From NCBI RefSeq assembly GCF_013167455.1, contig NZ_CP038328.1: DNA of 64,000 nucleotides. One strand, given 5' to 3'. The notes under the pieces were generated by a model. The model was not told where the DNA came from, searched no databases, and was given only the letters and a program-made list of their open reading frames with translations. Shown piece by piece: positions 10,634 through 53,400 of the stretch (position 1 is its first letter; each line of letters begins with the position of its first letter). The stretch comes from Escherichia coli O157:H7. GTDB taxonomy: Bacteria; Pseudomonadota; Gammaproteobacteria; Enterobacterales; Enterobacteriaceae. Both the position numbers and the translations under genes were made by a program.

Positions 10634-10794
10634 AGTAAGTACAAAACCTATTCGTTGTATGACAAATGTCACAATTCGATCATGGATAAATCGGGGCAAA
10701 AATGCAATGTTGCAGCACTATTTATCTCATATTATTTGAGGGTAATAACCTCACATTATCCCTGAATTAAAAGTGGTAATAATAAAACATTATT

Positions 10795-10808
10795 TAAGAA
10801 ATATCGCA
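10795..10808 (+). promoter_or_regulatory. Candidate RcsAB box upstream of the colanic acid operon
   Basis: TAAGAAATATCGCA resembles the RcsAB-box consensus (TaAGaatatTCctA) in the long AT-rich leader upstream of wza. Confidence 0.3.
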
Positions 10809-11074
10809 TGTGGAGACGCAATATTAAATATTGTCAACCTAAAGAAACTCCTAAAAACCATATTGAATGACACTTAATATAATTCTTAAAAATAGCCAAT
10901 TGCCGAATTGTTACCTTGCCTGCTATTCCGTTAGCTGTAACACTTCCTCCTGCATTATTGGAGAGCCAATATTCAATTACCATAATGTCACCTTATATTC
11001 GGAAGTTAATTTCCGCAATAACCCTTTCTCATCAACGATTGTATGCAGAGAGGGTTTGAAAAATTAAGCTAAAT

Positions 11075-11113
11075 CAGTGTATTGGTAGCTAAAAAGCCAG
11101 GGGCGGTAGCGTG
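11075..11113 (+). promoter_or_regulatory. JUMPstart element with ops site (RfaH antitermination) in the wza leader
   Basis: CAGTGTATTGGTAGCTAAAAAGCCAGGGGCGGTAGCGTG; ops core GGCGGTAGCGTG at 11102-11113. Confidence 0.85.
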
Positions 11114-11291
11114 TCTGGATGCCTGAAAGACCAGTCTGAATTATTCTGTCAATAGCCTGCGGATGAAATCAATTTTTTTAGGACTGATGCCAGTTAAATT
11201 TTTATTCAATTAACTGCAAGGTAAATGTGCATGGCGACATTGCTATTAATAGTGCACAGGATAATTACTCTGCCAAAGTGATAAATAAACA

Positions 11292-12431
11292 ATGATGAAA
11301 TCCAAAATGAAATTGATGCCATTATTGGTGTCAGTAACCTTGATAAGCGGTTGCACAGTACTTCCGGGCAGCAATATGTCGACGATGGGCAAAGACGTCA
11401 TCAAACAGCAGGACGCTGATTTCGATCTCGACAAAATGGTGAATGTTTATCCGCTGACCCCGCGCCTGATTGACCAATTACGCCCACGCCCGAATGTAGC
11501 GCGCCCCAATATGACGCTGGAAAGTGAGATCGCGAATTACCAGTATCGCGTCGGGCCGGGGGACGTTCTTAATGTCACCGTCTGGGATCACCCGGAACTC
11601 ACCACGCCAGCCGGTCAGTACCGCAGCTCCAGCGACACCGGCAACTGGGTACAGCCTGACGGCACTATGTTTTACCCGTATATCGGCAAGGTTCACGTAG
11701 TCGGGAAAACGCTCGCTGAAATCCGCAGTGATATTACCGGGCGCTTAGCGACGTACATCGCTGACCCGCAGGTGGACGTTAATATCGCCGCCTTCCGCTC
11801 ACAAAAGGCCTATATCTCAGGTCAGGTGAATAAATCTGGTCAACAGGCGATCACCAACGTACCACTGACCATTCTCGACGCCATCAACGCCGCAGGTGGC
11901 CTGACCGACACCGCTGACTGGCGCAACGTGGTGCTAACACACAATGGTCGTGAAGAGCGAATTTCTTTGCAGGCGCTGATGCAAAACGGCGACCTCAATC
12001 AGAACCGACTGCTTTACCCCGGCGATATTCTCTACGTGCCGCGTAATGATGATCTGAAAGTGTTTGTGATGGGTGAAGTGAAGAAACAGAGCACCCTGAA
12101 AATGGACTTTAGCGGCATGACCCTGACCGAAGCCCTGGGCAATGCTGAAGGCATCGACATGACCACCTCCAACGCCAGCGGCATCTTTGTCATTCGTCCG
12201 CTGAAAGGCGAGGGCGGGCGTAACGGCAAAATTGCCAATATCTACCAGCTGGATATGTCCGATGCCACGTCGCTGGTGATGGCGACAGAATTCCGCCTGC
12301 AACCTTATGACGTGGTGTATGTCACCACCGCCCCGGTTTCCCGCTGGAACCGTCTGATCAATCAGTTGCTGCCAACTATTAGCGGTGTCCGTTACATGAC
12401 GGATACAGCCAGCGACATTCATAACTGGTAA
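11292..12431 (+). CDS. wza: Outer-membrane polysaccharide export lipoprotein Wza
   Basis: 379 aa, lipoprotein signal [21 protein letters not shown]. Confidence 0.93.

Positions 12432-52224: not shown

Positions 52225-53400
<1,176 letters not shown>

Follow-up and report, generated by a model that had tools for sequence, protein, structure and literature searches.

Through which cis-acting sequences is the colanic-acid operon of Escherichia coli O157:H7 controlled, and where among them does the Rcs operator lie? In E. coli and related bacteria, colanic acid serves as the general capsule of stress and biofilm conditions, and the Rcs envelope-stress phosphorelay is classically read out through its induction. 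Transcription of the colanic-acid operon wza-wca, formerly named cps, depends on a promoter that precedes wza and bears an RcsAB box, with RcsA and RcsB as activators. In the 64-kb stretch of DNA analyzed here (hereafter the window), wza is read rightward from an ATG at 11292 and is followed by wzb and wzc; yegH, a gene of the TerC family, is read leftward on the minus strand, its start codon ending at 10633. The divergent genes are thus separated by positions 10634-11291. An initial annotation of this interval described it as about 660 bp of AT-rich non-coding DNA forming a long regulatory leader of wza, pointed to a sequence resembling the RcsAB box (TAAGAAATATCGCA) well upstream of the JUMPstart element, and expected Rcs control of colanic acid to be exerted there. 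At the level of the whole region, this expectation is upheld by the JUMPstart/ops match reported below and by the literature on cps activation by RcsA and RcsB. A consensus match on its own cannot locate an operator, and the region was compared across the Enterobacteriaceae. We consider it likely that 10634-11291 is the Rcs- and RfaH-controlled cis-regulatory region of the wza-wca operon, common to the divergent yegH promoter, and that the annotated box, hereafter box D, is probably a genuine Rcs operator, one of an array.

Extent, composition and coding potential of the yegH-wza region

The extent and the composition initially proposed were recovered with exact coordinates: the intergenic DNA measures 658 bp and has a GC content of 34.8%, vs. 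48.2% for the whole window and 0.53 for each flanking gene, with a value of 0.265 between 10716 and 10900. Used as a query, the 658 bp are 100% identical to O157:H7 chromosomes, and 4818 of the 5426 complete E. coli genomes contain them with at least 80% query coverage. The alignment with K-12 suggested in the initial annotation agrees with this picture, as the MG1655 counterpart (2137244-2137901) is also 658 bp long and can be aligned without indels, its 11 substitutions all lying outside the conserved elements. On the far side of yegH, the O157 genome contains an insertion (8357-8975, minus strand) that separates asmA from yegH and encodes a helix-turn-helix antitoxin and a toxin of the RelE/ParE family (112 aa, 8637-8975), whereas the asmA-yegH gap of K-12 holds only 273 bp of intergenic DNA.

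The wza loci were taken from 80 Enterobacteriaceae species, 77 of which, with the yegH start included, make up the alignment; these 77 species are phylogenetically related, and the conservation counts given throughout are therefore not independent observations. Conservation of the intergenic DNA is concentrated in discrete islands (Table 1). A rigid module of about 160 bp (10795-10955) comprises box D, a second Rcs-type box termed P, block (a) and element (b), the latter two each holding a candidate core promoter; the successive steps from D to P, from P to (a), and from (a) to (b) measure 29-30, 30-31, and 19 bp. The distance from (b) to the ops site, on the other hand, floats between 173 and 223 bp across species. 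The intergenic region as a whole is between about 500 and 960 bp long, depending on the species. In Pseudescherichia vulneris and two relatives it measures about 503 bp and has no ops match (loci L036, L037, L040, and L046 group with this length variation), and in one Citrobacter amalonaticus it measures about 960 bp, with an ops site 335 bp from wza. Such differences suggest that the leader has undergone deletions or insertions in particular lineages. At the other end of the region, the left 80-100 bp look like the yegH promoter and 5' UTR, a conserved block that contains a perfect palindrome and a promoter-like sequence directed toward yegH, and for which no Rfam match was obtained.

Table 1. 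Elements mapped between yegH and wza, in positions of the window.
Element	Position	Strand	Remarks
Conserved yegH-proximal block	10634-10715	-	Presumed yegH 5' UTR; conservation profile across genera
Perfect palindrome TGACAAATGTCA	10660-10671		Within the yegH-proximal block
Promoter-like TTGCAT-17-CATGAT	10707-10679	-	Read from the sequence
Distal Rcs-type box U	10716-10729	+	cactatttatctca in E. coli, left half lost
Box D, candidate RcsAB box TAAGAAATATCGCA	10795-10808	+	TAGGAAATATCGCA in most other genera
Near-invariant block TGTCAAccTAAAGAAACTCCTAAAAA	10832-10857	+	Contains box P; 77-species alignment
49-aa ORF, PGAP "hypothetical protein" WP_162829205.1	10834-10983	-	Probably not a gene
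Promoter-proximal Rcs-type box P TAAAGAAACTCCTA	10840-10853	+	Within TGTCAA..AAG.AA.TCCTAAAA
Block (a) cacTTAATATAATTCTTAAAAAtag	10871-10893	+	-10 of an activator-dependent promoter, or half-site Q
Candidate promoter (a)	-10 TATAAT 10878-10883; no -35 match	+	Start ~10890, leader ~400 nt
Half-site Q TCTTAAAAA	10884-10892	+	Alternative reading of block (a)
Candidate promoter (b), sigma70-like	10915-10944; cTTGCCT 10916-10921, 17-bp spacer, TGtAACACT	+	Start ~10952, leader ~340 nt
Extended -10 of promoter (b)	TG 10936-10937, hexamer 10939-10944	+	Sequence conservation
JUMPstart element	11075-11113	+	RF01707, 57.3 bits (gathering threshold 35), E=3.6e-12
ops site GGCGGTAGCGTG, RfaH loading	11102-11113	+	Intact 12-mer, 190 bp before the wza ATG
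Proximal leader, highly conserved	11114-11291	+	77-species alignment
Inverted TCCTAAAAA in the leader	11175-11183	-	TCYTAAA half-site at 11177, downstream of ops

Whether one of the short ORFs of this stretch encodes a real small protein bears on the non-coding status of the region. The ORF of 49 aa is the obvious candidate, since many RefSeq genomes of E. coli list it under the name "hypothetical protein"; it is unannotated in K-12. We give this reading practically no credence. Six short ORFs were tested, and each is intact in none to three of the 77 species. The 49-aa ORF is itself intact in two and keeps its start codon in 14, and its substitutions are distributed over the three codon positions (1663/1480/1368) with no third-position excess. 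Moreover, no relatives of it were found beyond E. coli and Shigella, and the conservation of its sequence is explained by its overlap with conserved wza promoter elements. The short ORFs are probably not genes, as had been supposed at the outset, and WP_162829205.1 is likely an over-annotation propagated through many E. coli genomes.

Candidate Rcs-type boxes

The RcsAB box consensus for enterobacterial exopolysaccharide promoters, including those of E. coli wza and rcsA, reportedly originates from the work of Wehland and Bernhard in 2000. It is given as TaAGaatatTCctA, in which capitals denote the conserved bases (PMC4325325), and its right half is attributed to RcsB (PMC3950696), for which a motif derived from the structure reads TN(G/A)GAN4TC(T/C)NA (PMC7913699). 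Box D resembles RcsAB boxes in being 14 bp long, in lying upstream of an Rcs-induced exopolysaccharide operon, and in matching the six capitals of the consensus (T1, A3, G4, T10, C11, and A14), a property that no other 14-mer of the 658 bp shares. Unlike the consensus, with which it agrees at only 9 of 14 positions, it has a right half that reads TCGCA instead of TCctA and thereby breaks the TC(T/C)NA of the RcsB motif; every site in the region departs from the full consensus by more than three mismatches. Read on the minus strand, the left half of box D gives TCTTAAA (10793-10799). The box precedes the wza ATG by 497 bp, and both candidate promoters as well as JUMPstart lie between the two; JUMPstart itself is found 267 bp downstream of the box, which bears out the position initially claimed. 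In being far upstream it is comparable to the box of rcsA, TAAGGATTATCCGA (positions 405-418 of locus L083), which is found about 170 bp before its own start.

Could the match be a functionless chance occurrence in AT-rich DNA? The core pattern TNAGNNNNNTCNNA is observed 21 times in the window vs. 24.4 expected, and a sequence identical to box D at 13 of 14 positions (TAAGAAATATCGTA, 52617-52630) is present inside a 388-aa ORF (52234-53400, the size of ugd); this copy is intragenic and was dismissed as most likely a chance match. Since the motif match is at chance level, it is the conservation across species, not the pattern, that lifts box D above chance. At least five of the six capital positions are kept at the aligned site in 55 of the 77 species, and the form TA[A/G]GA[A/T]AT[A/T]TCGCA is encountered in Escherichia, Citrobacter, Salmonella, Enterobacter, Lelliottia, Kosakonia, Phytobacter, and Silvania. 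The commonest deviation, from A3 to G, is permitted by the RcsB motif. Among 14-bp windows of 10716-11070, the box ranks at the 81st percentile of conservation. The -10 block could be located in 68 species, and in 53 of these the start of the box precedes it by 77-80 bp. Because it is kept across many genera at this fixed distance while its flanks diverge and much of the intervening sequence varies, 10795-10808 is under selection and tied in its position to the wza promoter module, plausibly as an Rcs-type box, and comparative footprinting already largely refutes a chance origin, which we hold to be most improbable.

Selection could also act on box D for the sake of another factor or of the divergent yegH promoter instead of Rcs, given that the region is common to two divergent genes and that the motif is AT-rich and statistically weak. 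Nevertheless, its distance is fixed to the wza module and not to yegH, in spite of the variable intergenic length; it is separated from the presumed yegH start by about 125 bp, and its sequence follows the Rcs consensus, with the purine that the RcsB motif admits at position 3. A conservation unrelated to Rcs therefore appears improbable. What stands of the RcsAB-box reading of 10795-10808 is a conserved, fixed-position Rcs-type candidate; this candidate is neither the sole nor the best-conserved Rcs-like element of the region.

Box P occupies a near-invariant block closer to the candidate promoters. Its T1, A8, T10, C11, and A14 are invariant in all 77 species, and its C12 and T13 are found in 72-73 of them. 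Its right half, TCCTA, meets the RcsB half-site TC(T/C)NA. The left half is loose, with a G at position 4 in only 12 species; in E. coli it reads TAAAG, in which the G is displaced by one base, and it does not fit TN(G/A)GA. Full consensus boxes (e.g., TGAGGCTAATCCTA) are found at the position of P in Atlantibacter, Franconibacter helveticus, Kosakonia cowanii, and Siccibacter. The end of box P is separated from TATAAT by 24 nt in E. coli and by 23 nt in most genera; in rprA, which served as a calibration, the RcsB box ends 23 nt from the -10 and is centered at -42.5. With its perfect right half and this spacing, box P is similar to the RcsB boxes of RcsA-independent promoters (rprA and osmC type), from which it differs in that its E. 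coli form has no G at position 4 and in the status of the promoter that it would serve, a candidate. RcsB homodimer boxes adjoin the -35 element on its upstream side at RcsB-dependent promoters (PMC5651002). The RcsAB target of the rcsA promoter, TAAGGATTATCCGAAAAA (L083, 405-418), resembles box P as well, in its right half and its A-tract. The same combination recurs 35 bp downstream of P, where block (a) can also be read as AATTCTTAAAAA; this half-site, Q, fits TC(T/C)NA as P does, whereas the right half of D does not.

On these grounds, the operative Rcs operator could be box P (TCCTAAAA), possibly along with the TCTTAAAA block (10875-10892), acting on promoter (b), from which transcription would begin near 10952; box D would then be auxiliary or would not be the published RcsAB box. 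The RcsB half-site of P is invariant in 77 of 77 species vs. about 55 that keep D, and P persists in Cedecea, Buttiauxella, and Trabulsiella, in which D has decayed; P and Q obey the RcsB half-site that D breaks, and promoter (b), relative to which P would be near -105, is conserved in nearly all species. Conversely, D alone in the region matches all six capitals of the consensus and its fixed spacing argues for a function of D, while P has a base other than G at its fourth position both in E. coli and in 65 of the 77 species, and its distance to TATAAT reproduces that of rprA, a better fit to promoter (a). We see in P as the main operator a possible reading and lean against it, the preferred one being that D is a genuine operator among several Rcs-type sites.

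How many such sites there are can be approached from the half-site itself. The sequence TCYTAAAAA has four copies in the window, three of which belong to the 658 bp (10849, 10884, and, inverted, 11175), all in invariant blocks. We would only tentatively, and with more doubt than conviction, extend this to a rigid array of at least four TCYTAAA Rcs-type half-sites (10793-10799 on the minus strand, 10849, 10884, and 11177 on the minus strand) that, together with a degenerate distal box, would surround two alternative core promoters and control wza. The distal box U matches the consensus in full (TGAGATTTCTCTTA, TGAGATTAATCTTA) in Enterobacter, Lelliottia, Trabulsiella, and Cedecea (loci L028, L035, L045, L067, and L081), and 171-174 bp separate it from the -10 block downstream in 16 species. 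It could serve yegH, wza, or both, and yegH may be Rcs-regulated in the genera that have a full box U. This box is situated just upstream of the presumed -35 of yegH.

Candidate core promoters and the wza leader

Two candidate core promoters are found downstream of box P (Table 1). Block (a) ranks at the 97th percentile of conservation, and the cross-genus form of its -10, TAATAT (10875-10880), is present in 61 of the 77 species; no recognizable -35 accompanies it in the 77-species alignment. Promoter (b) follows the pattern TTGCCT-N14-TGn-AACAAT, with TTGCCT in 70, TG in all, and AACAAT in 71 of the 77 species. Because its spacer is fixed in length and variable in sequence, and because RNAalifold predicted no pairs on 10900-10962 and hence no conserved RNA fold, (b) reads as a DNA-level promoter. 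A start near 10890 from promoter (a) is favored, and only slightly so, on account of the distance from P to TATAAT, which equals the layout of rprA; (b) has in its favor that it is conserved at least as well as (a), that it possesses in addition a recognizable -35, and that block (a) resembles a further operator. Spacing cannot separate the two, as the whole module from D to (b) is rigid. With promoter (a), box D would be centered near -89; with promoter (b), it would be centered near -150, and block (a) would be a further operator instead of a -10.

Also in favor of (b), one paper describes the mapped wza promoter with "-10 and -35 sites" (PMC2478693). The wza transcription start site is given as NA in a study of RfaH and H-NS (PMC9765446). 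Neither candidate start is among the Cappable-seq supplement entries listed, in both versions of the K-12 coordinates, and a full-text literature search for the site sequences returned no relevant match. A consensus promoter scan yielded a single match, TGGAGA-16-CATAAT (10959-10986), which was rejected as spurious because it falls where the region is least conserved (4th-15th percentile).

Either start would leave a transcribed wza leader of about 340-400 nt, the part of the region for which the term leader is appropriate; it does not apply to the whole 658 bp, and box D, which had been presented as part of the leader, lies upstream of the start and outside the transcribed leader. A scan of 10300-11700 against Rfam at E<=1 returned JUMPstart only, and no riboswitch for wza or yegH. 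With a full-length 57-bit match and an ops site on the non-template strand of the leader, the JUMPstart/ops element of wza is akin to the RfaH antitermination leaders of rfb, rfa, hly, and kps. The element itself shows no difference from RF01707 leaders; it is placed 150-210 nt downstream of the start, and the operon also needs an activator of initiation. In strain CFT073, the ops site of wza is likewise listed 190 bp before the ATG, and RfaH was found associated at wza by ChIP, with the signal in a delta-hns delta-stpA background (PMC9765446).

Downstream of ops, the proximal leader is highly conserved, and its last stretch (11245-11291) is about 98% invariant in the 77 species, into the start codon, which exceeds the conservation of ops itself. 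RNAalifold predicted 14 pairs on 11072-11303 with no compensatory changes, and the fold of the proximal leader has a z-score of -0.38, i.e., no covariation-supported structure. An IS1 element inserted in the interval from JUMPstart to wza strengthened the colanic-acid phenotype of an evolved strain (PMC8117528). Because an insertion there changed this phenotype, the proximal leader is functionally relevant, and 11140-11291 may be the target of an sRNA, of CsrA, or of a protein. Two AGGA motifs occur in the proximal leader, near 11181 and 11258.

Proposed activation of the operon and its significance

With a GC content of 26-35%, the wza module is comparable to promoters silenced by H-NS and counter-silenced by an activator, such as that of rcsA and that of wza in CFT073, the strain from which the H-NS data come. 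In that strain, a sigma70 peak is detected upstream of wza only with hns and stpA deleted, and H-NS covers the promoter in the wild type (PMC9765446). What the present analysis shows is the map of the elements, how conserved they are, and how they are spaced; the following H-NS, Rcs, and RfaH steps are inferred from established knowledge. First, H-NS would silence the AT-rich promoter module of wza. Second, upon envelope stress, phosphorylated RcsB and RcsA would occupy the Rcs-type boxes D and P, possibly also Q; box D, with its full TARGA left half, would act as an RcsAB-type site, and box P as an RcsB-type site abutting the -35 position, as in rprA. D and P together would activate or counter-silence initiation, through recruitment of RNA polymerase or relief from H-NS, and RNA polymerase would initiate near 10890, or alternatively near 10952. 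Finally, RfaH would load at ops and transcription would be carried through the operon of about 20 kb.

Most of this is already-known biology: a textbook control region has been re-identified in an O157:H7 genome, and nothing is conceptually added. What is mildly new is the rigid multi-site architecture and the invariant proximal box TCCTAAAA, the most conserved element (77 of 77 species), which may be undescribed. Comparative footprinting provides a precise element map for engineering or mutating the wza promoter, and the RefSeq "hypothetical protein" overlapping this promoter is a probable annotation artifact. If the array reading were true, colanic-acid induction would involve a multi-dimer nucleoprotein complex of RcsB and RcsA, dedicated to counter-silencing or activation, instead of a single operator.
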